Positions 1 to 24,211 of a stretch of DNA of 64,000 nt are shown one piece after another (position 1 is the first letter of the stretch; each line of letters starts with the position of its first letter). The notes under the pieces were generated by a model, which saw nothing but the letters and a program-made list of their open reading frames with translations, was not told the DNA's origin and made no database searches. Origin of the DNA: Clostridia bacterium (lineage in GTDB: Bacteria > Bacillota > Clostridia > UMGS1883); contig JAFQQD010000027.1 in assembly GCA_017411435.1 (NCBI GenBank), forward strand, positions 2,926 through 66,925. The letters are read 5' to 3'. Made by a program: the position numbers and the translations under genes.

Positions 1-1
1 T

Positions 2-9217: not shown

Positions 9218-9231
9218 TAAGGAGCTTATTT

Positions 9232-9774: not shown

Positions 9775-9796
9775 AATACAAATTTTTTCAAACATT

Positions 9797-9840: not shown

Positions 9841-9843
9841 TTT

Positions 9844-10437: not shown

Positions 10438-10481
10438 AATTAATGCTATTATAATGACAAGAGATAACGATAACGATTATC
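10424..10481 (+). promoter_or_regulatory. Sigma-A promoter with downstream Fur/PerR box
   Basis: TTGACA 10424-10429, 17-bp spacer, TGcTATTAT 10444-10452; GATAACGATAACGATTATC 10463-10481 is 16/19 to the Fur consensus GATAATGATAATCATTATC. Confidence 0.75.
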
Positions 10482-10503
10482 GTTATTGGCAAGGAGGGAT
10501 TAT

Positions 10504-10863: not shown

Positions 10864-10900
10864 AATAATTAATTTTTATATACGAAAGGAAAAGATTATT

Positions 10901-11488
10901 ATGAAAAAATTTGTATGTTCAGTATGTGGTTATGTTCACGAGGGTACAAATCCTCCCGAGGCTTGTCCCGTATGTAAGGTTCCTGCTGAAAAGTTCAAGG
11001 AAATGCAGGAAGGCGCAGCTCTTGCAGCAGAGCATGAGTATGGCGTATATGCAAAGACAGTAAAAAACAACCCCGATATTTCAGAAGAAGATAAGAAGTA
11101 CATCTTCGAACAGTTGATGGCTAACTTCAACGGCGAATGTAGCGAAGTTGGTATGTACCTTTGCATGGCACGAATTGCTCATCGCGAAGGATATCCTGAA
11201 ATTGGTCTCTACTGGGAAAAGGCAGCTTATGAAGAAGCAGAACACGCTGCAAAGTTTGCAGAGCTTCTCGGCGAAGACCTTGAGCCCAACATGAAGGCTA
11301 CAACAAAAGACAACCTTAAGTGGAGAGTTGACTGTGAATATGGTGCAACTCAGGGTAAGTTTGACCTCGCTTCTTGTGCAAAGAAGAACGGCCTTGATGC
11401 AATCCATGATACAGTTCACGAAATGGCTCGCGACGAAGCTCGACACGGGAAGGCATTAGAAGGTTTGCTCAATAGGTTCTTCAAGTAA
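10901..11488 (+). CDS. rbr: Reverse rubrerythrin (N-terminal rubredoxin site plus di-iron domain); last codons element-derived
   Basis: CSVCGY...CPVC at N-terminus; EAEHA and EARHG di-iron motifs. Confidence 0.93.
11435..11451 (+). repeat. attL core region
   Basis: GAAGCTCGACACGGGAA; 15/17 match to 24161-24177. Confidence 0.85.
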
Positions 11489-11495
11489 GAAAAAT

Positions 11496-11523
11496 AAAGG
11501 GTTTGGAACACTCCAAACCCTTT
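11496..11523 (+). terminator. Element-supplied terminator for the reconstituted rbr
   Basis: AAAGGGTTTGGA-acac-TCCAAACCCTTT followed by T-rich sequence. Confidence 0.85.
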
Positions 11524-11628
11524 TGTTATGCCACTTTTCTTTAATTTTTACTGTTTAGTTCACGAAACTAAAATTGTTTACTGTTCTTGAGAATTCCAGT
11601 GTGTTTTTTAATGGTTTTTTATGAAAAA

Positions 11629-11699
11629 GTGGGCAGTTGGTGGGCAAAACCCACCAAAAAATCACTCTGCCCACCACAAAAAATGCCATTTGCCCACCA
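11629..11699. repeat. Putative integrase arm-type sites near attL
   Basis: GTGGGCAGTTGGTGGGCAAAA 11629-11649 (exact copy at 24080-24100); inverted TGCCCACCA at 11668 and 11691. Confidence 0.7.
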
Positions 11700-11707
11700 A
11701 AGTATTG

Positions 11708-12286
11708 TCAAGTATTACTGTTTATAAACCCTTTGACTTCACTTTTTGCTCTGTTGTTTTCCCTATCAACCTTTAATTCTTTTGAGATAGATATTCTCCC
11801 TATCACTTCTTGTATATCAAGTCTTTTTCTTTCTTCAAAACAATATTCTACTGCATACATAAAGTTTAAATCATAAAACTTGGAATAATACTTGGGGTTA
11901 ATAACAACATATTTATTTCTTCCAATCTTATAAAATGCTATCAAGTTTAGTCTTTCAAGCATATTTAATGTATTATATGTATGTACCACAGAATAACCCA
12001 TTTTTTCTGCAATTTCTTTTATTGAAAGTTTCAAAAGGTTTGTATCTGGTTCTATATGCTTGACATTGATATTTACAAGTAGAATAAAAAAGTTTGTGTA
12101 TTTTCTATCTACACCCAATTTGTTTACAAGAAAATCTAATGCAGTAATATGTATCTTCATAAACTTTCTTTTGTCTTTTTTCTTTTTCTCTGGAAGAACA
12201 ATAGTAGAATACCCTTTACTGTTAATGCTAAAAAGTTCTTTCCAGATTTCATTATGTTCAAGACCACTGATTTGTTTCATATACAC
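11708..12286 (-). CDS. RepL-like winged-helix replication/maintenance protein
   Basis: SIKEIAEKMGYS...TLNMLE HTH followed by G...YVVINP, as in Firmicute RepL-type proteins. Confidence 0.55.
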   Translation of the reverse strand: MYMKQISGLEHNEIWKELFSINSKGYSTIVLPEKKKKDKRKFMKIHITALDFLVNKLGVDRKYTNFFILLVNINVKHIEPDTNLLKLSIKEIAEKMGYSVVHTYNTLNMLERLNLIAFYKIGRNKYVVINPKYYSKFYDLNFMYAVEYCFEERKRLDIQEVIGRISISKELKVDRENNRAKSEVKGFINSNT

Positions 12287-12423
12287 CCCCTAACAAGAGA
12301 AAACTTAAACTGAACTTTATATAAACATAAAATACAGTTTATATTTAAAAATCTTTGAAATGCCCACTGTTGCTTAATTTGTGAGCATTTTTTAATTTTT
12401 GTTATTCTTACTCTTATTAGTAT

Positions 12424-12849
12424 TTATTCTATATCTGCTATGTCAACTAAATCATTTTTGAAAACAAAACAAATCTCTTTTAAATCTCTACACTCTGTTA
12501 TTACATACTCAATGTTGAGAACCCTAAAATAAGTTTGAAAAAAAGCAAAAACTTCTGGAAACCAATTCCTAATTTTTAAAATACCATTTGAAAAATAAAT
12601 GTCTGCATTGTCATACATACTACTTGCATACTCTGCAATGTATTCAACAAGTCTGTATTGATTCACTGCAATAAAACCTTTAATGTTTTCTACTACACCT
12701 TTTTGTAAAAGAGAAGAAACAACATAAGAAATATTTGGTTGAGTGCAACCTATACACTTTGACATTTCTTCTTGGTTAAAATGAAATTGTTTGTTGTTTA
12801 GTAGTGATAATGTTAAAATCTCACTGCTATTTATGAAAAATGCTCCCAT
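12424..12849 (-). CDS. Small winged-helix (MarR-like) DNA-binding protein
   Basis: NQEEMSKCIGCTQPNISYVVSSLLQKGVV; ATG at 12849 follows AAGGAGGTG. Confidence 0.6.
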   Translation of the reverse strand: MGAFFINSSEILTLSLLNNKQFHFNQEEMSKCIGCTQPNISYVVSSLLQKGVVENIKGFIAVNQYRLVEYIAEYASSMYDNADIYFSNGILKIRNWFPEVFAFFQTYFRVLNIEYVITECRDLKEICFVFKNDLVDIADIE

Positions 12850-12977
12850 TTTCCACCTCCTTAAAAATAATATAATTTTGAGTTTATACAAATATAAATC
12901 TCTTTATAATTGTTTTAACACCATTTTATATTACTGTCAAATTATAAAAATATTTATATTTTGGTAAAGGTTTTGAT

Positions 12978-13124
12978 GGACTGCTTAAAAGATACTTTGA
13001 AACAAAACTGGTAAAAAAATCACAAAACTAAATCTGGACCGGTTCTGTGTTAGATTTAATTTCTGCAAAAAATAACCAGTTTTCAAAATAGGGGTTCAAA
13101 GGTCTGTTAGATAGATATTTTGAA
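12978..13124 (+). repeat. 147-bp structured direct repeat, copy A
   Basis: 3 mismatches to 20267-20413; nested inverted arms AAACTGGT/ACCAGTTT and TAAATCT/AGATTTA. Confidence 0.92.
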
Positions 13125-13130
13125 ATAAAA

Positions 13131-13161
13131 AAACTACCAACTGAAAAACAGTTGATAGTTT
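13131..13161 (-). terminator. Intrinsic terminator
   Basis: AAACTACCAACTG-aaaaa-CAGTTGATAGTTT hairpin at the 3' end of 13166-13642. Confidence 0.65.
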
Positions 13162-13165
13162 GCTT

Positions 13166-13642
13166 TTAATCTTCTATTGGTCTTGGAGAAATATTAAAAA
13201 TCTCTTTCTTTTTTCTTCTGGCATAGGTAAAGGTTCTGTATGCTCCCCCATAGTGCCTTTCTATATAGCAAATAACATACTCACAGTTATCTACAACATA
13301 CTCATTTCCTTTTATGATTTGAAACTTCTGGGGAGTGTTCAAGGGTATATCTGCCATAAGAATATTATCATAATCTTTATAATACAGTTCCTTGTATTCA
13401 TTTATGCCTTTGGTTATGTATGGTATAACCAACTCTAATTTTATATCAGTATAAGTTTTCTGCAACTCTCTTATAACAGAAGAAGAACACCCATCAAATC
13501 TGCCATAATGCCCAACCCAGAACTCACTGACATTATGATTTAAAATCAAATCTTCTGCTATTGCTTTTATTTTTTCTCTTGTTTCTTCTGGGTAAGTAAT
13601 ATCACTATGCCCACAGAAACAACACCTTTTTATATTTTCCAT
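13166..13642 (-). CDS. SLOG-superfamily protein (DUF1273/YspA-like)
   Basis: CCFCGH N-terminus; F.VG.YG.FD, N.YVVD and GGAY.T..YA motifs. Confidence 0.7.
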   Translation of the reverse strand: MENIKRCCFCGHSDITYPEETREKIKAIAEDLILNHNVSEFWVGHYGRFDGCSSSVIRELQKTYTDIKLELVIPYITKGINEYKELYYKDYDNILMADIPLNTPQKFQIIKGNEYVVDNCEYVICYIERHYGGAYRTFTYARRKKKEIFNISPRPIED

Positions 13643-13770
13643 AATTACACCTTGCTAAAATACTAAAACTTCCTTGACACAGAAGTTTTATTTTATTATA
13701 CATAATAATCTTTTATTTGTAAATAGTTTATAATTATATATATAAAATAATTATGTAGATAGGTGTTTTT

Positions 13771-14019
13771 ATGAACTATTATAATGAAAAAGAATATCAA
13801 ATGTTTATAATAAAAGTTGGGTTAAAAGTTGGTTATTACAGAAGACTTGCAAATATGACACAAGAGCAGTTGAGTGAAAGCAGTGGTATGTCATTAAACT
13901 TTATTTCTCAATTAGAAGGTCCTTCTGCTCCTTATGTTCCTTCCCTAAAATCACTATTTAAAATAAGTAAAGTGTTAGGTGTTCCAATAAATAAATTAGT
14001 AGATGTAGATAATGATTAA
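13771..14019 (+). CDS. XRE-family HTH regulator
   Basis: YRRLANMTQEQLSE...ISQLE...PSLKSLFKISKVLGV. Confidence 0.88.
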   Translation: MNYYNEKEYQMFIIKVGLKVGYYRRLANMTQEQLSESSGMSLNFISQLEGPSAPYVPSLKSLFKISKVLGVPINKLVDVDND

Positions 14020-14042
14020 AGACTGCCAATGAGCAGTCTTTT

Positions 14043-15044
14043 TTAACTATATAAATAAATCTGTTTCAGGTCCTTTCTTTCCCCACTATGAGATAAGTGC
14101 CTTTGAATAACCATACTTTCTGCTTTTTCTTTACTCCACCCTTTATCAAGATAATATTGTAGTGCAATCTGGCAGTGATATTTTCTAAATTGGTGGTTTT
14201 TCCCACTGACTTCTAACCCCAATTCTTTTGTGATTTTTCTTATTTCATTACTCATAATTTGCCTTGTTGCTTTTGTGTCCTTTGGTAAGTCAAAAAGTCT
14301 GTCAGTTGGGTTCTTGCCTTGTTTCAGTTCTTCAAAAAAACTTCTGTATTCTGGGAGTATAATTCTATAACTATCTTTGCCACCTTTACCTACAATATGA
14401 ACAGTAGAATAAGTGTCTATTCTTCCATCTTTGGTAGTGGTGGTATAGGTATGAGTGTCAAGGTTAATATCTTCTGCTTTTATATTTATGAGTTCAGAAA
14501 CTCTGCAACCTAAAAATGCCATTGTCTTAATCTCATTTTGTCTGTTCCCTTTGTAGTTGCATATCTGTATAATTTCAGTATTTGTGTAAGTTCTTGCAGA
14601 ATTAGTTTTATATGTATCTTCCACCTTGTGTGCCTTTACTTCTTGTGTATAAAACTGCTCACAACCAAACTTTTTGGAACAAGCAATAGAAACTTTTTCC
14701 AACATATTTTTGTATGCAGCAACAGTTTTTTTACTGCAACCTTGTTTTGTGTTCAAATATTCCAGACACATTTTTGGTGTGATTTCTTTAACCATTTTTA
14801 TGTTGTAGTTTTCTTTCAAGAACTTAACAAAGTTTTTGCTTTTCTCTGCCAAGCATTGTGCAGTTCTTTGAGAAAATACATAGTTAATGCTTGTCCCATT
14901 TTTCTTAAACTCCCTTTTGCCAACACTTGAAAAATGAGTGCCATTTTCTCTGTTGTAAATCTCTGTTCTTTTTTCTTGATTTTGCATATTTATTTCTGCA
15001 AGTGCAGTGTGTATTTGATAACCCAAAGACTTATTTTTGCCCAT
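14043..15044 (-). CDS. Second tyrosine recombinase (candidate recombinase-type relaxase)
   Basis: GCRVSEL (R), GKGGK (K), HQFR (HxxR), LSH and terminal Y; no recognisable arm-binding domain. Confidence 0.8.
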   Translation of the reverse strand: MGKNKSLGYQIHTALAEINMQNQEKRTEIYNRENGTHFSSVGKREFKKNGTSINYVFSQRTAQCLAEKSKNFVKFLKENYNIKMVKEITPKMCLEYLNTKQGCSKKTVAAYKNMLEKVSIACSKKFGCEQFYTQEVKAHKVEDTYKTNSARTYTNTEIIQICNYKGNRQNEIKTMAFLGCRVSELINIKAEDINLDTHTYTTTTKDGRIDTYSTVHIVGKGGKDSYRIILPEYRSFFEELKQGKNPTDRLFDLPKDTKATRQIMSNEIRKITKELGLEVSGKNHQFRKYHCQIALQYYLDKGWSKEKAESMVIQRHLSHSGERKDLKQIYLYS

Positions 15045-15073
15045 TTTGAAAATACCCCCTTTTTAATCTGTAT

Positions 15074-15609
15074 TCACTGAAAATGGCAACATTTTCAGTG
15101 ATTTTTCCATAAAAAATGATTTTACACATTTTTTATAATTTTTTTCCTATTAAATACATTTTATTCCTTTTTATTTCTTTTTTCTGGTGCAGTGCAAAAT
15201 TGTTTAGGTTTAAATCAACCTAACCAATTTTGCAACAAAGTTTGGTATAATAAAAACCGGTTTTTTATTATACCAAATATGTGCAAAAAAAATCTGCTAC
15301 AACCAATAGCAGATTTTATCTGTCTTTTGAAAAATCACTCTTTGACTTTTTATAAGTTTAGTATGGCAGTTGCCACAAAGAACTTTTAAAAAGTCCCAAA
15401 AATAATTTATGATAAACACCACAAGTGGTGGAAAGAAAAATTATTTTTCCCTTGTTTCCTTATCAAGAGAAAATGTCTTTTGTGGGAAAGACAAAGAGTG
15501 TAAGAGTGATTTTTTCCAAAAGTTGTGTATAAGTAAAAAGTTTTAATATTATATAGTCTATCTGTAAGTTAAAACTTTATTGTTGCGAGTGCAAGAGTTC
15601 TGCTCTTGC
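15074..15609. other. Non-coding cluster of inverted repeats (candidate oriT/origin)
   Basis: IRs at 15074-15101, 15193-15234, 15241-15277, 15289-15317 and 15591-15609, plus shorter ones; no credible ORF. Confidence 0.55.
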
Positions 15610-15702
15610 TTTTTCTTTTTAAGAAAGGTCTGTTGGGAGTGTATATAAATGAAACCATTTATATTATTGTAGATAAAAAGTAAATACCCTTTTTTACATA
15701 AG

Positions 15703-15733
15703 CAAAGGAGCAGATTTTTTGTCTGCTCCTTTT
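15703..15733 (-). terminator. Terminator of the Xre regulator gene
   Basis: AAAGGAGCAGA-7nt-TCTGCTCCTTT. Confidence 0.7.
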
Positions 15734-15740
15734 GTCATTT

Positions 15741-16793
15741 TTATTTTATATATGAAATCAGTAAATCAGTTAATTTAACTCTAAAACTTTCAATGTCTGT
15801 TTCTGTTGCAGAGAATAAAGGGGAGAAATCAACATTGATAGCATTAACAAACTTATCTTTTCCATTTGTGCAGTTGTCTATCAGTTTTAAAACACTTTCT
15901 GGCATATTGCCATTTTTTAAAGATTGCAGTTTGTTGTAAAAGTCCCTACTGCTTATAGGTGCTCCTTGACTGATAAAATTACTTTGAAAATTGTTGTCAG
16001 TGTAATTTTCAACAACCTTTGCAATTTTATCAAAAATGTTTTCATAACCATAACTTTCTAACTCATTGTAAATGTCTGCATAAATCTGGTCATAGTCTTT
16101 TCTTTGTCTTTCTTCCAGTTCCAGACAGACAAGCAGTGAAAACAAAGTGGAGTATCTTATCTTATTATTAGTAAGAATATCATTGACAATGCAGTTAATG
16201 TCCTTGTCAGTTAGTTCATATTTGATACACCAATAAGGGTAGTTGCCCAAGTCCTTGTATTTCTCTGTATCAAGACCAACATACACTTCATTTGCTACTT
16301 TTATACTTGTTTTCAGTTTTATGTGCTTGTTGCCATTAAGTTTTTGCAGTGCAACAGTCCAGGCAGTAAAAGTGTCAGTTTCTTCTATACTCCTTAATAT
16401 TCTTCTTTCAAGAGCATTACTCAAAGTAATATACTGATACTTCATATAATATGCCTTAACCCAGTCTTGATTTTGCAGATTTTCTATTTCTGCATTTGCC
16501 CCATACAAATATTTTTCCAAGTGCATAATCACAAATTGGTCTATGGGCATAGTTTCCCAACCCACCTTGTTTTTGTATATTTCAAAGAAATTATTAAGAG
16601 TGTCAGTTGTGATACTGTTGCTCCCAGTTGCCTTTTCAAGATTTTTATATGTGTTGAGTTTCATACCCAAAAGTTCTGCCATATCTTCTGCCATAAGATT
16701 TATGTCTTTTCTCATATCTTTAAGGTGCTTTTTCAGTTCTGGTGTCAAATCATACTTTACACCTTGTGTAATATTTCTGCTTTCAGTTCCCAT
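15741..16793 (-). CDS. Large XRE-HTH regulator (probable element repressor) with unknown C-terminal domain
   Basis: LKDMRKDINLMAEDMAELLGMKLNTYKNLE; divergent from xis-int. Confidence 0.72.
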   Translation of the reverse strand: MGTESRNITQGVKYDLTPELKKHLKDMRKDINLMAEDMAELLGMKLNTYKNLEKATGSNSITTDTLNNFFEIYKNKVGWETMPIDQFVIMHLEKYLYGANAEIENLQNQDWVKAYYMKYQYITLSNALERRILRSIEETDTFTAWTVALQKLNGNKHIKLKTSIKVANEVYVGLDTEKYKDLGNYPYWCIKYELTDKDINCIVNDILTNNKIRYSTLFSLLVCLELEERQRKDYDQIYADIYNELESYGYENIFDKIAKVVENYTDNNFQSNFISQGAPISSRDFYNKLQSLKNGNMPESVLKLIDNCTNGKDKFVNAINVDFSPLFSATETDIESFRVKLTDLLISYIK

Positions 16794-16827
16794 TTTGGTT
16801 GTCTCCTTTCCTTATTATATATTATAT

Positions 16828-16975
16828 ACTATACACCAAAAAATCTATTCTGTCAAGTCAAAAATACAAAAATAACACCCCAAGTGTTTTGGAATAAAAA
16901 ATATTTTAAAAATATTTCAAAAAACCATTGACACAATAATTTTTGTATGTTATAATATAAAACACTGAGGGTGTT
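16828..16975. promoter_or_regulatory. Divergent sigma-A promoters with two inverted 15-bp operators
   Basis: Plus strand: TTGACA 16928, 17 bp, TATAAT 16951. Minus strand: TTGACA (16856-16851), 17 bp, TATAGT. Operators AACACCCCAAGTGTT 16874-16888 and AACACTGAGGGTGTT 16961-16975 (13/15 as reverse complements). Confidence 0.8.
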
Positions 16976-17041
16976 AAAATGAAACATTGAAAACAAAATG
17001 TATTGTTTTAACATCATAATTTCAAAAAAGGGAGTGATTAA

Positions 17042-17254
17042 ATGACAACTTCAAGACTTGTGTTAAGTGTTTGTGAAGTAGCAAAGATATTAGGTGTCAA
17101 TAAGGGTTCAGTTTATGCCTTAATACATAGTGGAGCATTATCTGCTATAAAGTTTGGAACATACAAAGTTCCTTCTTTTGAAGTAGATAATTTTCTTCAC
17201 AAGTATTCTGGTTGTGATTTAACTGACCTTAATAATATAAAAACATTAAATTAA
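17042..17254 (+). CDS. xis: Excisionase (HTH_17/MerR-like)
   Basis: LSVCEVAKILGVNKGSVYALIHSGAL.A.KFG; directly upstream of int. Confidence 0.85.
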   Translation: MTTSRLVLSVCEVAKILGVNKGSVYALIHSGALSAIKFGTYKVPSFEVDNFLHKYSGCDLTDLNNIKTLN

Positions 17255-17271
17255 GAAAAGGAGTGTTGAAA

Positions 17272-18492: not shown

Positions 18493-18513
18493 AGGGTGGT
18501 ATTTCCACCCTTT
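18491..18513 (+). terminator. Hairpin after int
   Basis: AAAGGGTGG-tattt-CCACCCTTT. Confidence 0.6.
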
Positions 18514-18600
18514 ACCTTCTCAAGAGTTGATAATGAAGATACTGTAAATAGTGTTTTCTTTGTTATATATAGAACACAAAAATTAAAAAAATAATTAAAA

Positions 18601-18656
18601 AAGGAGGAGTAGCAGTCAATAGTGGTGTTCCTTTTGCAACTGCTACAAAAGAAAAT
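18601..18656 (+). repeat. SD-hairpin leader, variant 0
   Basis: AAGGAGGA-GTAGCAGT..22 nt..ACTGCTAC-AAAAGAAAAT-ATG. Confidence 0.6.
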
Positions 18657-19094
18657 ATGGAAGTAAAAAAAATCAAAGAATTAGCAAAAGAAAACTTTGA
18701 AAAAGGTTTTTGGGAAAGACATTTTAATTATGCCAGAACCAGTGAAGAAAACCAAAAATGTATGTTGGAAATCATTGAGAAAACTAAAAAAGTTTATGAT
18801 TTGGTTGAAAGTGAAAGTGTTTCATTTGAAGAAAAGTTGAATATGCTTTTTGAAATTGCAGAGAAAGTTTTTGAATATGATTTTGGAATCTGTTTGACAG
18901 AGTGGAAAAAGTATAGTGGCAATATAAATGAGTGTTTACATATAATTGAAATTGATAAAAATGCTCCATATCTAACCCAGTCAAAAAATAGTTTAACTGA
19001 TATTAAAAGCAAAACCTTGTATGGTGCAATAGTTTCCATAAATGTAGGTCTGCTAAAAGAAATATATTTTAATATGAAAGGAGAGTGGGAGTAA
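18657..19094 (+). CDS. Hypothetical protein (cassette 1)
   Basis: 145-aa ORF; its last codons and stop (KGEWE*) are encoded by the next leader repeat. Confidence 0.75.
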   Translation: MEVKKIKELAKENFEKGFWERHFNYARTSEENQKCMLEIIEKTKKVYDLVESESVSFEEKLNMLFEIAEKVFEYDFGICLTEWKKYSGNINECLHIIEIDKNAPYLTQSKNSLTDIKSKTLYGAIVSINVGLLKEIYFNMKGEWE

Positions 19095-19108
19095 ATCTCC
19101 CACAACAA
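19078..19108 (+). repeat. SD-hairpin leader 1
   Basis: AAGGAGA-GTGGGAG-taaat-CTCCCAC-AACAA. Confidence 0.85.
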
Positions 19109-19113
19109 GAAAA

Positions 19114-19374
19114 ATGACTGTTAGAACATTGAAAAAACATTATAAAAAGAACTTCCCAGAAGGACACTTTTTTGATAAAGAAACATTAGAATATTGGGGA
19201 GAGAGTATAAATGCTATGTCAATATCAAAAAACTTGGTTGATTTTAAAGGTCATAAGTGCTATGAATTAGTTGCTCTTCAAAAAAATGATTATCATAACT
19301 TGAATAGATATGTATGGTTTTATTTTGATTGTGAAACTTTTGCATATATTGATTGTAAGTTTAAAAAAGATTAA
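19114..19374 (+). CDS. Hypothetical protein (cassette 2)
   Basis: 86-aa ORF with GHFFDKETLEYWG; aromatic-rich. Confidence 0.75.
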   Translation: MTVRTLKKHYKKNFPEGHFFDKETLEYWGESINAMSISKNLVDFKGHKCYELVALQKNDYHNLNRYVWFYFDCETFAYIDCKFKKD

Positions 19375-19380
19375 AAGTGA

Positions 19381-19412
19381 AAGGAGAGTGGGGACACTGC
19401 TCCCCACAACAA
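19381..19412 (+). repeat. SD-hairpin leader 2
   Basis: AAGGAGA-GTGGGGA-cactgc-TCCCCAC-AACAA. Confidence 0.9.
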
Positions 19413-19419
19413 TTTTATT

Positions 19420-20205
19420 ATGACAAAGTTTGAAAATTATTTTAACAATAAAGACCTTGATAAGAAAACCATTGAAAAATATCTTAAAATCATAGAAAAC
19501 TTGTGTATAGAGTTTGAAGATATAGGTCTACACCCATATAATTATGTTAATGATATGCTATGTATAGCAGAATATTTTGGTGTGGAATTGTGCTACCCAC
19601 TTATCACAGGAGAGAAAGCAGAAAAAATTGTTTTTGAAAAATTAAAATCAAAAATAGAAAATATGGAATATGATTATAATTATGATAATGATACTGAAAC
19701 ACTTATTGACTGGAAAGAACTCAGTGATTTTGTTTATGATATACATAGAAATAGTGAAGATATATATTACTACTATTACAAAACAGATAGCAATTCAGTT
19801 ATGGGTGTTTCTCAACTGGGGGAAGTAGATATAAATAATATTAGAAAAAATCTTTTAGAAAAAATAATAGAGATTGTAGATAATGAACAAGGGAGAGTGG
19901 GGACACTGCTCCCCACAACAGAAAAAATGAAGTATAAAATGAATATAACAATTACCTATAATGACATTGAAACAACCATTGATTTAGATTGTAATTTTTT
20001 TATCATTAAAGAAAATGACTATGGCAACAAATATCATTTGTCAATTACAAACAAATTGGGTTTTAATGAGTGGGTTGATATTAGATATGACACAACCTTT
20101 GATATCAACAAAAAAGAAAAGTATCTTGTGGACTGGGCATATAATTATTGGACTGGTAAAAATGGTGCTTGGGGAATCAAGAGAATTAAAGTCATAAAAC
20201 TATAA
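19420..20205 (+). CDS. Hypothetical protein; in-frame fusion of cassettes 3 and 4 (internal start at 19927)
   Basis: 261-aa ORF that reads through leader 3 as GRVGTLLPTT; in-frame ATG at 19927. Confidence 0.7.
   Translation: MTKFENYFNNKDLDKKTIEKYLKIIENLCIEFEDIGLHPYNYVNDMLCIAEYFGVELCYPLITGEKAEKIVFEKLKSKIENMEYDYNYDNDTETLIDWKELSDFVYDIHRNSEDIYYYYYKTDSNSVMGVSQLGEVDINNIRKNLLEKIIEIVDNEQGRVGTLLPTTEKMKYKMNITITYNDIETTIDLDCNFFIIKENDYGNKYHLSITNKLGFNEWVDIRYDTTFDINKKEKYLVDWAYNYWTGKNGAWGIKRIKVIKL
19889..19920 (+). repeat. SD-hairpin leader 3 (inside ORF)
   Basis: AAGGGAGA-GTGGGGA-cactgc-TCCCCAC-AACA, essentially identical to leader 2. Confidence 0.9.
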
Positions 20206-20212
20206 ATGTATT

Positions 20213-20239
20213 AACCACCAACTATGGCAGTTGGTGGTT
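20213..20239 (+). terminator. Terminator of the cassette array
   Basis: AACCACCAACT-atggc-AGTTGGTGGTT followed by T-rich sequence. Confidence 0.8.
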
Positions 20240-20266
20240 TTCTTATACTCTGGAAAAGGGTTTAAG

Positions 20267-20413
20267 GGACTGTTTAAAAGATACTTTGAAACAGAACTGG
20301 TAAAAAAATCACAAAACTAAATCTGGACCAGTTCTGTGTTAGATTTAATTTCTGCAAAAAATAACCAGTTTTCAAAATAGGGGTTCAAAGGTCTGTTAGA
20401 TAGATATTTTGAA
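20267..20413 (+). repeat. 147-bp structured direct repeat, copy B
   Basis: Near-identical to 12978-13124. Confidence 0.92.
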
Positions 20414-20489
20414 TTATAAAAAAGGTGTTTATAAAGTTCTCTATAAATAAACAATTACAAAAAATAACATAATAAAGGGAGTGCTACAA

Positions 20490-20894
20490 ATGACACCAAC
20501 ATTAAAAGAACAGAAGAAAGAGTGCTTAACCAGATTGAAACTTTCTGGGTTATGCAATGAAGTTATTACAGACTTCAAAAATGGGCAGTTATACAAGACT
20601 GAACAACTGGGTATATTGTATTATATCAATGACAATGAAAAGGCAGTGGTTAAAGACTTTGAAGAAAAAAATAATGCTATGGTATATCATATATTACATA
20701 GTAATACAGAGTTTGGAGAATTACTTGCTTTACTCTATGTCAGTAAATACAAGGAAGAGTGGCAAACTGACAGAGAAGATTTAAAAGATAATATTGCTTT
20801 GTCTTATGTCTATAATGTTGATTGCCCAGATTTCAGTGAGTTTGGTTCTATTGGTTTTGCCCAGAGATTTGGGGGACTTGTGAGAACTGCATAA
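20490..20894 (+). CDS. Hypothetical protein (LYVSKYKEEW...DREDL...SEFGSIG...GGLVR)
   Basis: 134-aa ORF; ATG at 20490 after AAGGGAG; own terminator at about 20897-20943. Confidence 0.8.
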   Translation: MTPTLKEQKKECLTRLKLSGLCNEVITDFKNGQLYKTEQLGILYYINDNEKAVVKDFEEKNNAMVYHILHSNTEFGELLALLYVSKYKEEWQTDREDLKDNIALSYVYNVDCPDFSEFGSIGFAQRFGGLVRTA

Positions 20895-20973
20895 CCCCAC
20901 CACCACCAACCAATAAAAATTATGGTTGAGTGGTGGTTTTTTTTAACTTTTTTATGTTAATTCTGTGAAATTA

Positions 20974-21002
20974 TTGATTTTCCAACAGATATATGGTATA
21001 AT
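20974..21002 (+). promoter_or_regulatory. Sigma-A promoter of the MTase operon
   Basis: TTGATT, 17 bp, TGgTATAAT. Confidence 0.7.
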
Positions 21003-21039
21003 AAATACTAACTATACTTGCATATAGGAGAAGATAAAA

Positions 21040-22188
21040 ATGGCAGGGACAAAAGATTTACATAATGCAAAAAAAGAGAAAAAAGATGAGTTTTATACTC
21101 AACTTGAAGATATAGAACTTGAACTAAAACATTATAGAAATGACTTTAAAGGCAAGGTTATTTTTTGTAATTGTGATGACCCCTATGAAAGTAATTTCTT
21201 TAAATACTTTGCAATGAACTTTAATACTTTTGGACTTAAAAAGTTAATTGCTACTTGTTATGCTACTTCCCCAGTGGCAAACACACAACTTTCTTTGTTT
21301 GATATTTTAGATATGCCAGAAGAAACAGAAGAAGATAACAGAAAACCACATAAAATAGAGATTACAGAAGTTCTGGACTACAATGAAGATGGAGCAGTAG
21401 ATTTAGCAGATGTTGAGTTTCTTTTAAGAAGTAAAAAAAACACTCTTACACTTCTTAATGGAGATGGAGATTTTAGAAGTGAAGAGTGTATAGAACTTTT
21501 AAAACAAGCAGACATAGTTATAACAAACCCACCATTTTCTTTGTTTAGAGAATATGTTGCTCAACTAATTGAATATGACAAGAAGTTTATTATTATAGGA
21601 AATAAAAATGCTATCACTTATAAAGAAATATTTTCTTTAATACAAGAAGAGAAAATGTGGTTGGGTTATAGAAATATAAATGCAGATATGTGGTTTATAG
21701 TTCCAAAAGACTATGAGTGTGAAAAGGTTGTAAATGGTTTAAGAGTTAAGCATATTATGGGTTGTTGGTTCACAAATCTTGACACAACTAAAAGACACGA
21801 AGATTTATTGCTTTTCAAACCATATACCCCAGAAGAATACCCCAAATATGATAATTATGATGCCATAAATGTTGATAAAGTTAGTGATATTCCTTGTGAT
21901 TATGATGGTGTTATTGGAGTTCCTATAACATTTCTTGATAAATACAACCCTAACCAATTTGAAATACTTGGGTTGTCTCAAAAAGTTGGTATGGGGTTAG
22001 AAAGCAACAAGTTTTATGATGATTACAAGGAAGTAAGACAAGATGGCAGTTTTACTGGTAGTTCTGGCAAAAAAACAAATGGAAACCCAGTAATGAAAGG
22101 AAAACCAGAAAAAGGAAATTACTACACTAATGGAACTGATTTTGTATATTCTCTCTATGGAAGAATATTCATAAGGAAAAAAAGGTGA
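21040..22188 (+). CDS. Adenine-specific DNA methyltransferase, EcoRI family
   Basis: K.DEFYTQL, CNCDDP.ESNF, GDFRS.E, ITNPPFSLFREY and GVPITFLDKYNP.QFEI motifs. Confidence 0.92.
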   Translation: MAGTKDLHNAKKEKKDEFYTQLEDIELELKHYRNDFKGKVIFCNCDDPYESNFFKYFAMNFNTFGLKKLIATCYATSPVANTQLSLFDILDMPEETEEDNRKPHKIEITEVLDYNEDGAVDLADVEFLLRSKKNTLTLLNGDGDFRSEECIELLKQADIVITNPPFSLFREYVAQLIEYDKKFIIIGNKNAITYKEIFSLIQEEKMWLGYRNINADMWFIVPKDYECEKVVNGLRVKHIMGCWFTNLDTTKRHEDLLLFKPYTPEEYPKYDNYDAINVDKVSDIPCDYDGVIGVPITFLDKYNPNQFEILGLSQKVGMGLESNKFYDDYKEVRQDGSFTGSSGKKTNGNPVMKGKPEKGNYYTNGTDFVYSLYGRIFIRKKR

Positions 22189-22192
22189 GTTT

Positions 22193-23302
22193 ATGGAAAT
22201 AAGATTAGAAGAAAAAACAATTAGAGAAATCTATAATGGTTATCTTGATAGTGCAGAAAATGGAGTGGTTGCATTTGGTGGAAAATTAAATGTAAGACCA
22301 CCTTTCCAGAGAGAGTTTGTCTATTCTGGCAAACAGAGAGATGCAGTCATTGATACAATACAAAAAGACTTCCCATTAAATGTTATGTATTGGGTTGAAA
22401 ATGACAATGGTTATTATGAACTTCTTGATGGACAACAAAGAACCATAAGCATTTGTCAATATGTGGGTGGAGAATATTCCATAAACCACAGAGCATTTGG
22501 AAACTTGACTGAAACTGAAAAAGAGCAGATTTTGAATTATAAACTAATGATTTATATTTGTAAAGGTAATGACAAAGAGAAATTAGACTGGTTCAAAATC
22601 ATAAATATTGCAGGAGAAAAACTAACAGACCAAGAGTTGAGAAATGCCATTTATACTGGTGAGTGGTTGTCAAATGCAAAAGCATATTTTTCTAAAAATA
22701 ACTGCCCAGCATATCAAATAGCAAGTAAATATATGAGGGGAACACCCATAAGACAAGACTACCTTGAAACAGTCTTAAAATGGGTTTCTGCAAGAGATAA
22801 TATTGACTTGGAAGATTATATGGCAGAACACCAGAACACCACAAATGCAAGTGAATTATGGTTGTATTTCAACAGTGTTATTACTTGGGTAAAAACTATA
22901 TTCCCTAATTACAGAAAAGAAATGCAAGGCATTGAGTGGGGACTGCTCTATAACAAATATGGTAATGATAAACTTGACCCACAAGAACTTGAAAAAAGAA
23001 TAGTTGAGTTAATGCAAGATGATGACATAACAAAAAGAAGTGGCATATATGAATACTTATTAAGTGGAGAAGAAAAATACTTGAACATAAGAAGTTTCAC
23101 AGACACAATGAAAAGAAAAGTCTATGAGAAACAAAAAGGTATATGCCCACATTGTAAAGCAGAGAAGAAAGAGAAAATACACTGGGAGATTGAAGAAATG
23201 GAAGCAGACCACATTACACCTTGGTGTGAAGGAGGAAAAACAGAAATTGAAAATTGCCAAATGCTCTGCAAAGAACATAACAGAAGAAAATCAAGTAAAT
23301 AA
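22193..23302 (+). CDS. DUF262 (GmrS-like) plus C-terminal HNH endonuclease
   Basis: P.FQR, DGQQRT and F..IN motifs; CPHC...MEADHITPW.EGGKT...NCQMLC..HN.RK. Confidence 0.9.
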   Translation: MEIRLEEKTIREIYNGYLDSAENGVVAFGGKLNVRPPFQREFVYSGKQRDAVIDTIQKDFPLNVMYWVENDNGYYELLDGQQRTISICQYVGGEYSINHRAFGNLTETEKEQILNYKLMIYICKGNDKEKLDWFKIINIAGEKLTDQELRNAIYTGEWLSNAKAYFSKNNCPAYQIASKYMRGTPIRQDYLETVLKWVSARDNIDLEDYMAEHQNTTNASELWLYFNSVITWVKTIFPNYRKEMQGIEWGLLYNKYGNDKLDPQELEKRIVELMQDDDITKRSGIYEYLLSGEEKYLNIRSFTDTMKRKVYEKQKGICPHCKAEKKEKIHWEIEEMEADHITPWCEGGKTEIENCQMLCKEHNRRKSSK

Positions 23303-23312
23303 GGAAGAAAAT

Positions 23313-23939
23313 ATGCCAGATTTTTCAATTAAAGCAATAGTTTTAACAATAATTACAACAATAATTACAACTTTAATAGGAATAATAATTAAGGGTATTT
23401 CAATCAGTAAAATAAAAAAATGGTGGGAAGATACAAGAATATATAAGTATTTTAAAAGGTATCAATTTGTTAATGATATTGAAGACAATCAAAAGACCTT
23501 TAGCACCTTTATAACATTAAGCAAAAGTAATACAGACCAAACAAATACAGAATATCAAAAAGCAATGTTTTCCATACAAGACAAATTACATAAAACAGTA
23601 GTTAAAGAAAAGGAACTTTGGGGGAAAATCAAATCAAGTACAACATCTCCAAAGGAAAGAGAAATATTAAATGAATTATTGTCAATAAATAGTGGTGGTA
23701 ATACTGATAATATTTCAAAAAGTGAATTAAAAACTATTGGAGATAAAAGGTTGAAGTGTTGTAAGCAGTATATTAAAACACTAAAAAAATATCAACAAAC
23801 ACCAATAGAGAATTATCAAGTTGAAAAACTTGACTGCTTGAAAGATTATGTTAATGCAACAAAGTCTTATTATGAATTGTTGTATATCTATTTACCCATT
23901 GACAAAAGAAATATTATAGAAAAATCTTTTAATAAATAA
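23313..23939 (+). CDS. Hypothetical protein with N-terminal transmembrane helix
   Basis: IKAIVLTIITTIITTLIGIII; ATG 10 bp after the HNH gene stop. Confidence 0.7.
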   Translation: MPDFSIKAIVLTIITTIITTLIGIIIKGISISKIKKWWEDTRIYKYFKRYQFVNDIEDNQKTFSTFITLSKSNTDQTNTEYQKAMFSIQDKLHKTVVKEKELWGKIKSSTTSPKEREILNELLSINSGGNTDNISKSELKTIGDKRLKCCKQYIKTLKKYQQTPIENYQVEKLDCLKDYVNATKSYYELLYIYLPIDKRNIIEKSFNK

Positions 23940-23944
23940 AAAGA

Positions 23945-23973
23945 TTGCAATATCAAGCAGTATGTGGTATAAT
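23945..23973 (+). promoter_or_regulatory. Outward-facing sigma-A promoter pointing at attR and ftnA
   Basis: TTGCAA, 17 bp, TGgTATAAT; no credible ORF before attR. Confidence 0.65.
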
Positions 23974-24060
23974 AAAAATACATAATCACAGAATATAAAT
24001 ATACTGTGATAAACAGAAACAGACCTAAAACCTTTGGTTTTATGCCCTTATTCTTTGAAA

Positions 24061-24100
24061 TGGTGGGCACAAGAAAAAGGTGGGCAGTTGGTGGGCAAAA
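24061..24100. repeat. Putative integrase arm-type sites near attR
   Basis: TGGTGGGCA 24061; GTGGGCAGTTGGTGGGCAAAA 24080-24100. Confidence 0.7.
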
Positions 24101-24160
24101 TGAGATTGAAAATCACAGAACCCTTGATTTTACTGGGTTTCTGTGAGTAAGTCCCATTGT

Positions 24161-24211
24161 GAGGCTCGCCACGGGAAAGGCTTGGAAGGTCTTTTGAAGA
24201 GATATTTCTAA
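24161..24211 (+). pseudogene. attR with the displaced original 3' end of rubrerythrin
   Basis: Translates EARHGKGLEGLLKRYF*, versus [17 protein letters not shown] at 11435-11488. Confidence 0.9.

Follow-up and report, generated by a model that had tools for sequence, protein, structure and literature searches.

The window, the whole 64,000-nucleotide stretch of DNA analysed, contains an integrative island of approximately 12.7 kb (positions 11452–24160; 12,709 bp, 30.2% GC). It is inserted site-specifically at the 3′ end of a rubrerythrin gene; Table 1 lists its features. Its edges are abrupt, with dense CpG running up to 11446 and starting again at 24167. The target sequence is duplicated at the island ends, a sign of mobility, and related islands bring their own versions of the rubrerythrin 3′ end. 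The right limit was set by comparison with another locus, L007; host-specific sequence begins directly after ...CATTGTGA (24160). In L007, which belongs to a different host, the 3.4-kb right end occurs with 100% identity, beside another rubrerythrin remnant and other genes. The 64-kb window has six copies of GGTGGGCA, every one of them close to an island end (0.64 expected). The first copy of the 180-nt repeat is an internal junction relic.

Table 1. Features of the island and its junctions (positions in the window).
Feature	Position	Strand	Remarks
Left junction repeat GAAGCTCGACACGGGAA (attL region), imperfect, 17 bp	11435–11451	+	inside rubrerythrin gene; 15/17 positions match 24161–24177
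Island-encoded CpG-free substitute for rubrerythrin 3′ end	11452–11488	+	ORF 10901–11488 remains intact
Left GGTGGGCA repeat cluster (11639+, 11668−, 11691−)	11624–11700		candidate integrase/Xis arm sites
Winged-helix-like protein, 190 aa, left module	11708–12286	−	weak HTH matches; 39–86% identity within family
Winged-helix-like protein, 141 aa, left module	12424–12849	−	weak TrmB/MarR matches; 59–96% identity within family
180-nt repeat, copy 1	12954–13133	+	two decayed rubrerythrin 3′ coding ends (GKGFDGLLKRYFE, GFKGLLDRYFE)
SLOG/YpsA-like protein, 158 aa	13166–13642	−	PF06908 E=3e-5, under curated cut-off; relatives 90–98% identical
Xre-type HTH regulator, 82 aa	13771–14019	+	PF01381 E=2e-9
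Second tyrosine-recombinase-like protein, 333 aa	14043–15044	−	PF00589 E=2e-7
Family-specific protein, 350 aa	15741–16793	−	weak N-terminal HTH; two divergent alleles in family
Excisionase-like HTH_17 protein, 70 aa	17042–17254	+	PF12728 E=4e-10
Tyrosine integrase, 406 aa	17272–18492	+	PF00589 E=3e-21, PF14659 E=8e-11
Three small genes (145, 86, 261 aa)	18657–20205	+	32-nt hairpin repeats between them
180-nt repeat, copy 2	20243–20422	+	94% identical to copy 1; same two rubrerythrin-end relics
Conserved 134-aa protein	20490–20894	+	heads cargo module; confident predicted fold
Cargo EcoRI-family N6-adenine DNA methyltransferase, 382 aa	21040–22188	+	PF13651 E=4.5e-140; PADLOC MTase_II E=9e-121
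Cargo DUF262(GmrSD_N)-HNH nuclease, 369 aa	22193–23302	+	PF03235, PF01844; PADLOC REase_II PDLC03418 E=8e-136
208-aa protein without assigned function	23313–23939	+	
Right GGTGGGCA repeat cluster (24062, 24079, 24090)	24062–24097	+	
Displaced original rubrerythrin 3′ end, EARHGKGLEGLLKRYF*	24161–24211	+	contains right junction repeat 24161–24177

The second recombinase-like protein is 23–29% identical to 'tyrosine recombinase' genes of small C. perfringens plasmids. Family searches gave no match for the three small gene products, and comparison of the 134-aa fold with PDB structures gave no neighbour. A larger mobile element encodes a homologue of the 134-aa protein (50% identical), placed upstream of PcfJ and two genes away from ArdA. 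The DUF262-HNH nuclease matches a Type II restriction-enzyme model over its full length, and on these matches the island is predicted to carry Type II restriction-modification (R-M) cargo. The tyrosine integrase, Xis-like HTH protein, duplicated target, replacement 3′ end, tandem arrays and defence cargo are shared with site-specific integrative islands and integrative mobilizable elements that enter a conserved gene at its 3′ end and restore it. Unlike these, the island gene set yielded no recognisable transfer genes (relaxase, coupling protein, packaging) or oriT in family searches, so that frequent transfer, and its mode, are only what we infer. The searches returned no annotated record matching the rubrerythrin target together with the island gene set.

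Words missing from the island

AGCT, GGCC, AGCC and GGCT (together RGCY) are absent from the island, as are GATC (among 154 GAT), CATG and CTAG. An earlier note on this DNA had reported these absences correctly and had understated the pattern. It had put GTAC at about three copies, and there are exactly three, at the positions it gave (11983, 17351 and 23638). It had also observed correctly that every AGC (52/52) and GGC (39/39) is followed by A, and that TGCA is abundant (71 copies). Only five CpG remain (observed/expected, o/e, 0.017), and TCGA, ACGT, GCGC and CGCG count zero each. GGAT/ATCC is absent against ~65 expected, no GAT being preceded by G, and RAATTY occurs once against ~47. CAGC/GCTG occurs 3 times, CCTC/GAGG 6 times, GTNAC never, TCNGA once, CTNAG twice and GANTC 3 times. 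The 2.6 kb of non-coding DNA in the island is purged as well.

The counts were compared with three independent nulls: a zero-order model, a first-order Markov model (500 simulations) and a synonymous-codon shuffle (1000 shuffles) that holds proteins and codon usage fixed. The zero-order null gives ~35 copies per 4-mer and ~71 RGCY; the Markov null gives 85±8.5 RGCY (minimum 64), 23 GATC, 45 CATG, 28 CTAG and 26 GTAC. The codon shuffle expects 35 RGCY, 15 GATC, 14 CATG, 14 CTAG and 18 GTAC, and the observed values were reached in none of the shuffles. It further expects 93 CG and 40 GGAT, against 1 and 0 observed. The comparison with Markov and codon-shuffled nulls, which the earlier note had proposed, thus ended with chance rejected by every null. 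No CG-containing codon is used, and the single CG stands across codons where 93 are expected; the avoidance shows both in which codons are chosen and in which codons stand next to each other.

As controls we took 78 ten-kb windows of unrelated loci together with host flanks. None of these controls lacks more than 4 of the 12 G/C-containing 4-bp palindromes, and their lowest CpG o/e is 0.57; the island lacks 9 of 12 and stands at 0.017. Avoidance of CpG, GGAT and AGCC is lacking in the same-genome controls, namely the host flanks, the second islands that share the site in tandem (L013, L014) and the L016 island, whose integrase is 35% identical.

Within the island, TG (1.32) and CA (1.22) are over-represented and CG stands at 0.02, as deamination of methylated CpG to TpG/CpA would leave it. 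Such a bias, or another context-specific mutator acting without selection, is already strongly disfavoured as the cause, and we give it very little credence. Host DNA directly flanking the island has normal CpG (o/e 0.96), and a CpG methyltransferase gene is present in none of the islands. Nor is any mutational process known to remove GATC, CATG, CTAG, GANTC, GTNAC, RAATTY and GGAT together while sparing TGCA, CANTG and TGNCA. The words found in excess are the synonymous alternatives that avoidance imposes, and residual CpGs at non-coding sites are conserved: those at 11563 and 15586 are kept in most relatives (5 and 8 loci). Of the others, the CpG at 15258 is common to some relatives and that at 21798 is found in one close relative only.

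Variation across the island family

Relatives occupy the same site in at least eight other Clostridia genomes or metagenome contigs. Their host flanks range from 33 to 47% GC, one host has a rubrerythrin that is only 65% identical, and the conserved rubrerythrin target is present in all hosts of the family. The broad host range proposed in the earlier note is borne out only among sporulating members of the class Clostridia, in several hosts. Nine related islands (integrase 41–95% identical) share gene order, target site and the same missing words, with CpG o/e between 0.017 and 0.16. The family as a whole has the avoidance and has retained it across hundreds of synonymous changes. Orthologues differ at 720 synonymous positions, yet forbidden words are involved in only 18 of the changed codons, where ~134 would be expected; the constraint is ongoing.

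A depletion of this kind has a designed look, and megablast against phage and plasmid collections gave no match, as might be expected of an engineered 'site-free' construct or an assembly artefact. The chance of either is negligible. The island or its diverged relatives occur in independent ENA, NCBI MAG, JGI and Logan assemblies, with genes typical of natural islands, mosaicism and differing cargo, and this natural diversity refutes an artefactual or synthetic origin.

The avoided motifs act as separable traits, varying motif by motif between lineages. The sister lineage L063 avoids RGCY (8 observed/42 expected), GATC (0/11.5), CATG (1/12.7) and CTAG (0/6.6) and keeps CG (194/198), GGAT (50/45), GTAC (20/20) and RAATTY (45/31); avoidance of the latter four occurs together in the nine islands and is missing altogether in L063. 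CCTC is avoided in the window's island and L065 and not in L057 or L015, and CAGC avoidance is weakest in L065. CpG depletion among lineages is graded (0.01, 0.21, 0.35, 0.98). RGCY is the real avoided unit, as the earlier note had suggested in calling the avoidance degenerate: AGCC/GGCT matches AGCT and GGCC in the strength of its depletion, and RGCG is not avoided in the lineage that still has CpG (48 vs 35).

The only R-M genes seen are the cargo of the islands themselves. This cargo is interchangeable and modules recombine freely among family members: the window's island, L011 and L057 carry an EcoRI-family methyltransferase with a DUF262-HNH nuclease, and L065 carries a C5-methyltransferase with an Eco47II-type nuclease. 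The backbone might have been purged for compatibility with any R-M cargo that recombination brings in, so that a cargo nuclease expressed in a new cell would not cleave it ahead of full methylation. GGNCC, the presumed own target of L065, is kept there (9 vs 7 expected) and stands at 0–4 against 4–7 expected in other islands, which favours this idea. We nevertheless consider it improbable. L014 is depleted without R-M cargo, the EcoRI-family cargo makes no difference to AATT/RAATTY avoidance, and one cargo covers one motif, not more than 30. Since the host chromosome also contains these sites and would itself be cut, timing control would be necessary in any case.

Restriction as the probable selective agent

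The pattern of depletion follows known Type II specificities, a reading supported by the pooled family; the pooled statistics come from related, non-independent sequences. Among G/C-containing 4-bp palindromes in the pool, 7 of the 10 for which an expectation is usable do not exceed 0.16 and GTAC is at 0.27, with TGCA not depleted; CGCG falls outside the usable set and CCGG is weak (5/8.9). GANTC (0.11), GTNAC (0.11), TCNGA (0.15) and CTNAG (0.28), which we take to be restriction-enzyme sites, are depleted 4–10 fold. CANTG, TGNCA and ACNGT stand at 1.15–1.53, and AGNCT is not depleted either; we know of no enzyme for CANTG, TGNCA or AGNCT. Enzyme names put on motifs are tentative and follow REBASE prototypes. 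For 6-bp palindromes the median observed/expected is 0.09, compared with 0.97 for non-palindromes, and 20 of the 28 testable ones are below 0.33 (GTTAAC 0/16, CAATTG 1/29, ATTAAT 6/58, AAATTT 10/106).

We think it likely that the pattern is the cumulative product of selection for escape from many restriction systems, methylation-dependent ones probably among them, with restriction inferred as the selective agent. Multi-system avoidance, which the earlier note had proposed, is the best-supported reading: the words track enzyme specificities, and the avoidance is codon-level, a family trait and absent from host DNA. Selection would act on the whole island, coding and non-coding, leaving almost no sites for sequence-specific nucleases or methyltransferases. 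The purged list comprises CpG, RGCY, GGAT, GATC, CATG, CTAG, GANTC, GTNAC, TCNGA, CTNAG, RAATTY, CAGC and most testable 6-bp palindromes, with GTAC and CCTC purged variably. An absent site could not be cut by the restriction enzyme of a new host, nor would it have been methylated in the old one, so the island DNA would be invisible to methylation-dependent nucleases. Every lost site would multiply the survival chance of an incoming copy. A short, often-moving island, inserted by its tyrosine integrase into sporulating gut Clostridia with different restriction repertoires, would thus be purged of the union of their targets. The avoided set is a generalist one: TTTAAA is kept in the island (21 copies) yet absent from the present host (0 vs ~25 expected). 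Since this host avoids TTTAAA completely, avoidance is not a full account of entry there.

Loss of CpG in every flanking context is hard to derive from a union of 4–6-bp sites, as is loss of GGAT regardless of the next base. The enzymes named in the earlier note do not explain the loss of every CpG, GGAT, CAGC and RAATTY, all of which it had missed. No bacterial restriction enzyme known to us recognises CG, GGAT or CAGC as an entire site, and for RGCY the one enzyme of which we are aware is the chlorovirus CviJI. It is possible, though we hold it doubtful, that for the whole-CpG, GGAT, RGCY, CAGC and RAATTY part the cause is not many classical enzymes but a few uncharacterised gut-Clostridia systems with very short or degenerate motifs, for example a CpG-directed methyltransferase with methyl-dependent nucleases, or a CpG-sensing nuclease. 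This would complement selection by many restriction systems, not replace it. Every NCGN context is depleted 3–100 fold, non-palindromic ones included (AACG 5/143, CGAA 14/140, ACGA 14/92), GGAT is missing before any base, and the CpG, GGAT, GTAC and RAATTY traits come and go jointly. RGCY methylation is documented for prokaryotic viruses, in phage methylomes (PMC8919816), and Mollicutes have CpG methyltransferases (PMC9465063). On the other side, no such system was identified in this analysis, the flank CpG speaks against long-term CpG 5mC methylation of the hosts, depletion across CpG contexts is not wholly even (0.01–0.33), and co-occurrence in one clade may be shared ancestry.

Passive anti-restriction by complete loss of a frequent 4-bp palindrome is familiar from staphylococcal phage K, which lacks GATC, and from Bacillus phages without host enzyme sites. 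In those phages one or a few sites are matched to a known host enzyme, whereas the island has lost nearly all G/C-containing short palindromes and, as TTTAAA shows, is unmatched to its present host. SyngenicDNA 'stealth' DNA and commercial CpG-free vectors are recoded synonymously to remove R-M targets or CpG, with the aim that a restrictive host accepts them. At the codon level the island shows the same kind of solution, but it is natural, evolved and generalist, and engineered stealth DNA is tailored to one strain's methylome. Vertebrate RNA viruses escape the CpG sensor ZAP through CpG depletion. This is an analogy only, of a parasite genome that sheds a single dinucleotide at its synonymous sites because the host recognises it: kingdom and molecule differ, CpG loss in the island is joined by loss of many classical restriction sites, and we know of no CpG sensor in bacteria.

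R-M target words are under-represented in phage and plasmid DNA (Rusinov et al. 2018, PMC6286503; Shaw, Rocha & MacLean 2023, PMC10359461), and the island shares this property of mobile DNA. It differs in that the purge is near-total and simultaneous, covers upwards of 30 word classes in an integrative island rather than a plasmid or phage, and takes a whole dinucleotide, CpG, together with degenerate or asymmetric 4-mers (RGCY, GGAT, CAGC); the literature searched held no report of such a combination. The island is an extreme variant of an already known avoidance strategy. Among plasmids, avoidance is strongest in small ones and in those of broad host range, and large ones carry anti-restriction genes (PMC10359461). 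The larger ArdA-carrying element with the 134-aa gene is CpG-rich, and together with the island pattern it fits this published trend.

Word counts and null models

The element occupies window positions 11452–24160 (12,709 bp). Its GC content is 30%, and that of the flanks is 36–43%. An earlier note, made from the sequence alone, had described RGCY, GATC, CATG and CTAG as absent and GTAC as rare. Direct counting confirmed this. AGCT, GGCC, AGCC, GGCT, GATC, CATG and CTAG occur zero times, with 154 GAT present, and GTAC occurs three times (11983, 17351 and 23638). All 52 AGC and all 39 GGC are followed by A, as had been claimed, and TGCA is indeed abundant (71 copies).

Several depleted words had been missed. 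Only five CpG dinucleotides are left (observed over expected, o/e, 0.017), and TCGA, ACGT, GCGC and CGCG are absent because CpG is almost gone. GGAT/ATCC is absent, with 71 copies expected at zero order and 65 under a first-order Markov model. Nearly absent are CAGC/GCTG (3 copies), CCTC/GAGG (6), GANTC (3), GTNAC (0), TCNGA (1), CTNAG (2) and RAATTY (1, with approximately 47 expected). The edges are sharp, with dense CpG up to 11446 and again from 24167.

The k-mer counts were compared with Markov and codon-shuffled nulls, as the earlier note had proposed, and the depletion is far beyond both. The first-order Markov null (500 runs) preserves the dinucleotide content, so the shortage of CpG is already accounted for. 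It predicts 85 ± 8.5 RGCY (minimum 64 in the 500 runs), 45 CATG, 28 CTAG and 23 GATC. In the second null, synonymous codons were permuted within each gene, so that the proteins stay unchanged and the codon usage remains that of the element, in which CG-bearing codons are never used. With ORF calls that use ATG starts only, the expectations are 93 CG, 35 RGCY, 40 GGAT, 15 GATC, 14 CATG and 14 CTAG. One CG and none of the other five words are observed, values reached by none of 1000 shuffles. Since shuffles that keep the codon usage still miss the observed values, the avoidance lies in which synonymous codons adjoin. TGCA is as expected under the same shuffle (61 vs 58). The purge also extends to the 2.6 kb of non-coding DNA. 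The depletion and its precision are shown by these comparisons. Of the 12 GC-containing 4-bp palindromes, nine are absent from the element. In 78 windows of 10 kb each, drawn from unrelated loci and from host DNA, at most four are absent from any one window and CpG o/e is at least 0.57.

An integrative island with exchangeable cargo

The block is a tyrosine-recombinase integrative island in the 3′ end of a rubrerythrin gene. The GGTGGGCA repeats near its ends may be arm-type sites to which the integrase or excisionase binds.

Features of the element and its insertion site (window positions)
Feature	Position	Remarks
Rubrerythrin gene	10901–11488	Kept intact by an element-supplied, CpG-free replacement end (11452–11488)
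Original rubrerythrin end, EARHGKGLEGLLKRYF-stop	24161–24211	Displaced by the insertion
17-bp imperfect repeat, GARGCTCGMCACGGGAA	Both junctions	Duplicated target
GGTGGGCA copies	11639–11698 and 24062–24097	Six of six in the 64-kb window, approximately 250 bp or less from the element ends; 0.64 expected
180-nt direct repeat	12954–13133 and 20243–20422	94% identical
32-nt unit with GTGGGGA...TCCCCAC hairpin	19077–19108, 19380–19411 and 19889–19920	Between and within small genes downstream of the integrase
134-aa protein	20490–20894
Residual CpG in TTCACGAAAC	11563	Non-coding, near left end; conserved in most relatives (five loci)
Residual CpG	13040	Mostly unconserved
Residual CpG in palindrome AAACCGGTTT	15258	Non-coding; common to only some relatives
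Residual CpG in TTGTTGCGAGTGCAAG	15586	Non-coding, between 333-aa and 350-aa genes; conserved in most relatives (eight loci)
Residual CpG	21798	Coding; shared with one close relative only

The element encodes a tyrosine integrase (PF00589, E=3e-21, plus PF14659), an excisionase-like HTH_17 protein (PF12728, E=4e-10), two winged-helix-like proteins, a SLOG/YpsA-like protein, an Xre-type regulator, a weakly integrase-like 333-aa protein, a family-specific 350-aa protein, a conserved 134-aa protein and small unknowns. Its cargo comprises an EcoRI-family adenine methyltransferase (PF13651, E=4.5e-140; MTase_II, E=9e-121) and an adjoining DUF262-HNH nuclease, which aligns along its entire length with a curated model of Type II restriction enzymes (REase_II PDLC03418, E=8e-136). 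Judged by these matches, the pair is a predicted Type II restriction–modification (R-M) system. EcoRI-family methyltransferases act on AATT-core sites. Avoidance of AATT-type words is the same whatever the cargo. In the relative at locus L065, a C5-methyltransferase, an Eco47II-type nuclease and a NUDIX protein (13881–16107) take the place of the EcoRI-family pair. GGNCC is not avoided there (9 vs 7 expected), and other members have 0–4 vs 4–7 expected. These figures hint, weakly, at relaxed avoidance of a motif protected by the cargo.

Searches with Pfam, PHROGs and PADLOC found no relaxase, transfer family or coupling protein in the element, and no replication or packaging genes were recognized. 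The phage-like content by PHROGs is limited to the integrase, excisionase and regulators, without a capsid or packaging gene. IMG/VR and GenBank phages hold no close relatives, megablast against PLSDB plasmids and GenBank phages returned zero matches, and integrase-based scans of IMG/VR and JGI metagenome contigs gave distant integrases only (≤29% identity) and no family members. We also considered the 333-aa protein as a TcpM-like relaxase. This was not supported, as tblastn led only to "tyrosine recombinase" genes, 23–29% identical, on small C. perfringens plasmids; no solved structural relative of the protein was found.

The 134-aa protein has 115 homologue clusters, none of them annotated. 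Its structure is predicted with confidence (pLDDT 95.6) and has no significant neighbor in the PDB. A homologue with 50% identity is encoded in a larger, CpG-rich mobile element, which is inserted at five different chromosomal sites; there it lies two genes downstream of ArdA, with PcfJ further downstream. By this gene-neighborhood association, the 134-aa protein is a candidate establishment or anti-defense gene.

Each copy of the 180-nt direct repeat holds two decayed rubrerythrin C-terminal coding ends (GKGFDGLLKRYFE and GFKGLLDRYFE), and these relics are themselves purged of the forbidden words. Their presence within the repeats indicates that the element is a three-module composite that grew as insertions recurred at a single site. 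The right-hand module is missing from the relative at L014. Separately, a 32-nt hairpin unit is present in three copies. An Rfam scan of the window gave tRNA-Ser as the single match.

A recombining family and its hosts

Exact and related copies of the element are present in ENA, NCBI, JGI and Logan assemblies. An assembly artefact and a synthetic origin were both rejected. The duplicated rubrerythrin end allowed ten elements to be delimited. These are the window element, its eight CpG-depleted relatives and L063, a member of a CpG-containing sister lineage of which L062 is a second, cut copy. The limits were set by junction alignment; an automatic block-finder was dropped because it broke elements apart wherever a few residual sites lay close together. 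All ten share one target, and gene order is kept even at an integrase identity of 41%. The rubrerythrin junction of the window element recurs in L007, L011–L015, L057, L058, L063 and L065.

CpG o/e is 0.017–0.16 in the window element and the eight depleted relatives, and the same words are missing from every module at any divergence. The 14 orthologue comparisons, which are not mutually independent, contain 720 synonymous differences. Forbidden words are touched by only 18 of the changed codons, compared with approximately 134 expected if the replacement codons were random. The family is mosaic. The L065 integrase is 41% identical to that of the window element, yet the SLOG, regulator and 333-aa genes are 95–100% identical, and across L011, L012, L015, L057, L058 and L065 integrase alleles of 41–95% identity stand beside neighbor genes of 95–100% identity. 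The 350-aa gene has two alleles in the family (approximately 36% vs 80–94% identity). By these comparisons, the family behaves as a recombining pool with exchangeable cargo.

The avoided repertoire differs between lineages. L063 has the same backbone, with an integrase approximately 44% identical to that of the window element. It avoids RGCY (8 observed/42 expected), GATC (0/11.5), CATG (1/12.7) and CTAG (0/6.6), and GANTC in part, and it is normal for CG (194/198), GGAT (50/45), GTAC (20/20), RAATTY (45/31) and also AATT. In the CpG-free group, the window element, L011, L058 and L065 avoid CCTC, but L015 and L057 do not; avoidance of CAGC is weakest in L065 and that of GTAC varies. CpG depletion itself is graded (0.01 in the window element, 0.21 in L013 and 0.35 in L014). 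A patchwork of repertoires that differ by lineage is the outcome expected of several selective agents acting independently, and not of a single bias. Inheritance and variation of the purge, like the insertion and spread of the elements, are observed directly in this set.

In L007 the right end is 100% identical over 3.4 kb and lies next to a different rubrerythrin remnant (EASHGRGLEGLLKRYFG-stop) and different downstream genes. Such an arrangement implies very recent transfer between hosts, the route of which we infer. Family members occur in at least five species-representative genomes and in further MAGs from goat, Hadza human and other gut samples. Flank GC of the hosts ranges from 33 to 47%, their neighboring genes differ, and the rubrerythrin of one host is approximately 65% identical to the others. 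The broad host range suggested by the earlier note therefore holds for several genera, one of them Ructibacterium (Oscillospiraceae, NCBI taxonomy), but all named hosts belong to one class, Clostridia. When the neighboring host ferritin was used to look for an empty site, every site recovered was either occupied or on a very short contig.

The window corresponds to a scaffold from a ruminant-gut metagenome. Its non-element genes are housekeeping, and the flanks are chromosomal DNA of a spore-forming bacterium, with PurL, PerR, ferritin, the sigma-F operon, CotJABC, DnaE and WhiA. These flanks show no avoidance of CG (o/e 0.96), RGCY or GGAT. Methylation-driven deamination was rejected as the cause of the CpG loss, given this normal CG in adjacent host DNA and the lack of a CpG methyltransferase in any element; the methyltransferases of the elements are of the N6A EcoRI type or presumed GGNCC C5 type, the latter by association with the Eco47II-type nuclease. 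GATC (0.25), CTAG (0.27) and CATG (0.66) are under-represented in the flanks, more mildly than in the element. Together with the shortage of ACGT, this is as expected where such R-M systems are common. In the 51 kb of host DNA (1–11451 and 24161–64000), ACGT occurs zero times, with 83 expected by the Markov null and 105 by codon shuffle of the coding DNA. TTTAAA is likewise at zero, with 25–27 expected; the 21 TTTAAA of the window all lie inside the element. These counts suggest that ACGT- and TTTAAA-specific restriction has long been at work in this host. ACGT is present in other hosts of the family. As the host avoids TTTAAA and the element keeps 21 copies, the avoided set is not tuned to the present host.

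Unrelated tandem islands occupy the same rubrerythrin target in L013 (7474–13956), L014 (11652–16858) and L062 (1–2500), and these loci carry three copies of the rubrerythrin 3′ end. They have normal CpG and GGAT and only ordinary palindrome avoidance at the same site, and so could be used as natural controls. An island in Peptoclostridium litorale, with a 35%-identical integrase, served as a further control. The second islands of L013 and L014 and the P. litorale island have normal CpG and GGAT; they avoid AGCT and GGCC, but not AGCC/GGCT (AGCC 25/18 in the tandem islands). The word purge is imposed by neither the site nor the hosts, and is a property of the element family.

The avoided set and restriction

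Word statistics were pooled over seven elements, related to each other in sequence, with 60 kb of coding sequence, and compared with synonymous shuffles. The 4-bp palindromes ACGT, AGCT, CATG, CTAG, GATC, GCGC, GGCC and TCGA are all at o/e ≤0.16. CCGG is weak (5/8.9), the expectation for CGCG is only 0.1, and GTAC, AATT and TGCA are at 0.27, 0.63 and 1.13, respectively. The interrupted palindromes GANTC (0.11), GTNAC (0.11), TCNGA (0.15) and CTNAG (0.28), which we take to be the sites of HinfI, MaeIII, Hpy188I and DdeI, are depleted; CANTG, TGNCA, ACNGT, AGNCT, ATNAT and TTNAA are not. Depletion in this class is limited to words known as enzyme sites (REBASE prototypes). Mutational decay is an unlikely cause, as no process would take the neighbors of TGCA, CANTG and TGNCA yet spare these three.

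Of the 28 testable 6-bp palindromes, 20 are below one third of expectation. Many of them contain no avoided 4-mer: GTTAAC (0/16), GTATAC (0/11), CAATTG (1/29), CTTAAG (1/18), ATTAAT (6/58), AAATTT (10/106), ATGCAT (3/20) and CATATG (4/19). The median o/e is 0.09 for 6-bp palindromes vs 0.97 for other, non-palindromic 6-mers. Asymmetric words are also down, namely GGAT, CAGC, CCTC, GTCTC (9/52), GAATG (20/117) and CTTTAG (0/36). GCAG, TGCC and ACTGC are over-represented as the synonymous alternatives forced by the avoidance. The avoided words are thus palindromic or enzyme-like rather than arbitrary, with the motif-to-enzyme mapping based on REBASE prototypes.

All four RGCY words are depleted, including the non-palindromic AGCC/GGCT (0/16 in the window element, 0/17 and 0/14 in others). 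In L063, where CpG is allowed, RGCY is depleted but RGCG is spared (48/35). The avoided unit is therefore RGCY and not RGCB. RGCY is the specificity of the chlorovirus enzyme CviJI, and a CviJI-like specificity fits this unit.

The earlier note had read its absences as multi-system restriction avoidance. Depletion beyond the nulls, enzyme-like words and a family trait that varies motif by motif support this reading, and passive anti-restriction through loss of sites is the probable working of the element, with restriction as the selective agent that we infer. A missing site would be uncuttable in the recipient. It would also be unmethylatable in the donor, so that methylation-dependent nucleases would not be triggered; both protections together would be unattainable by self-methylation. 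If each site carries some chance of cleavage before it is protected, every loss would multiply survival, and selection would therefore act stepwise and be strongest on short, often-moving elements. Small and broad-host-range plasmids tune their sequence, and large ones carry anti-restriction genes (PMC10359461); the larger ArdA-carrying, CpG-rich element that shares the 134-aa homologue fits this trend.

Known restriction-site avoidance is usually a statistical tendency or concerns one or two sites, whereas here more than 30 word classes are lost at once, among them a whole dinucleotide and degenerate and asymmetric 4-mers, in a recombining family with R-M cargo. The kind is known twice over, as site avoidance and as a site-specific integrative island; the degree and content are unusual. 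Neither the family nor such a combination of avoided words was found described in the collections and literature searched. For CpG-free or RGCY-avoiding bacterial elements, the literature gave general avoidance papers, marine viral RGCY methylation and the unrelated H-NS "stealth" concept.

Some words fit known enzymes less readily. CpG is lost in every flanking context (for example, AACG 5/143 and CGAA 14/140), which is hard to derive from 4–6-bp sites. No bacterial restriction enzyme is known to have CG, GGAT or CAGC as its entire site. Methylated RGCY has been described in marine Myoviridae-like viral genomes (PMC8919816), and CpG methyltransferases have been reported in Mollicutes (PMC9465063). 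Undescribed defense or modification systems in gut Clostridia or their phages, such as CpG- or RGCY-directed restriction, are a tentative explanation for the loss of CpG, GGAT, CAGC, RGCY and CTTTAG. It is likewise possible, although on balance doubtful, that the family records, as a "negative image", the restriction systems at work in uncultured gut Clostridia, the avoided words reporting undescribed ones. Lineage differences in these words could then lead to the discovery of such systems and inform the design of DNA for transforming intractable gut anaerobes.

The element is a natural one near the limit, with almost every short restriction target and dispensable CpG purged by codon choice and neighborhood, and this purged family itself transports restriction systems between species. 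If restriction avoidance is the correct interpretation, the family would show the strength with which restriction acts on small mobile DNA in the gut and would give a ready list of words to leave out when vectors are designed for Clostridia that are uncultured or intractable. The specificities predicted for the hosts and their phages would be CpG as a unit, GGAT, CAGC, RGCY and RAATTY. The L063 lineage, which keeps CpG, GGAT, GTAC and RAATTY, would provide a natural contrast with which each pressure could be dated and tested.

The five residual CpGs of the element are listed in the table. The three non-coding ones are probably protein-binding or structural sites that cannot change; everything removable has been removed. 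The few leftover CAGC sites are private to single elements.
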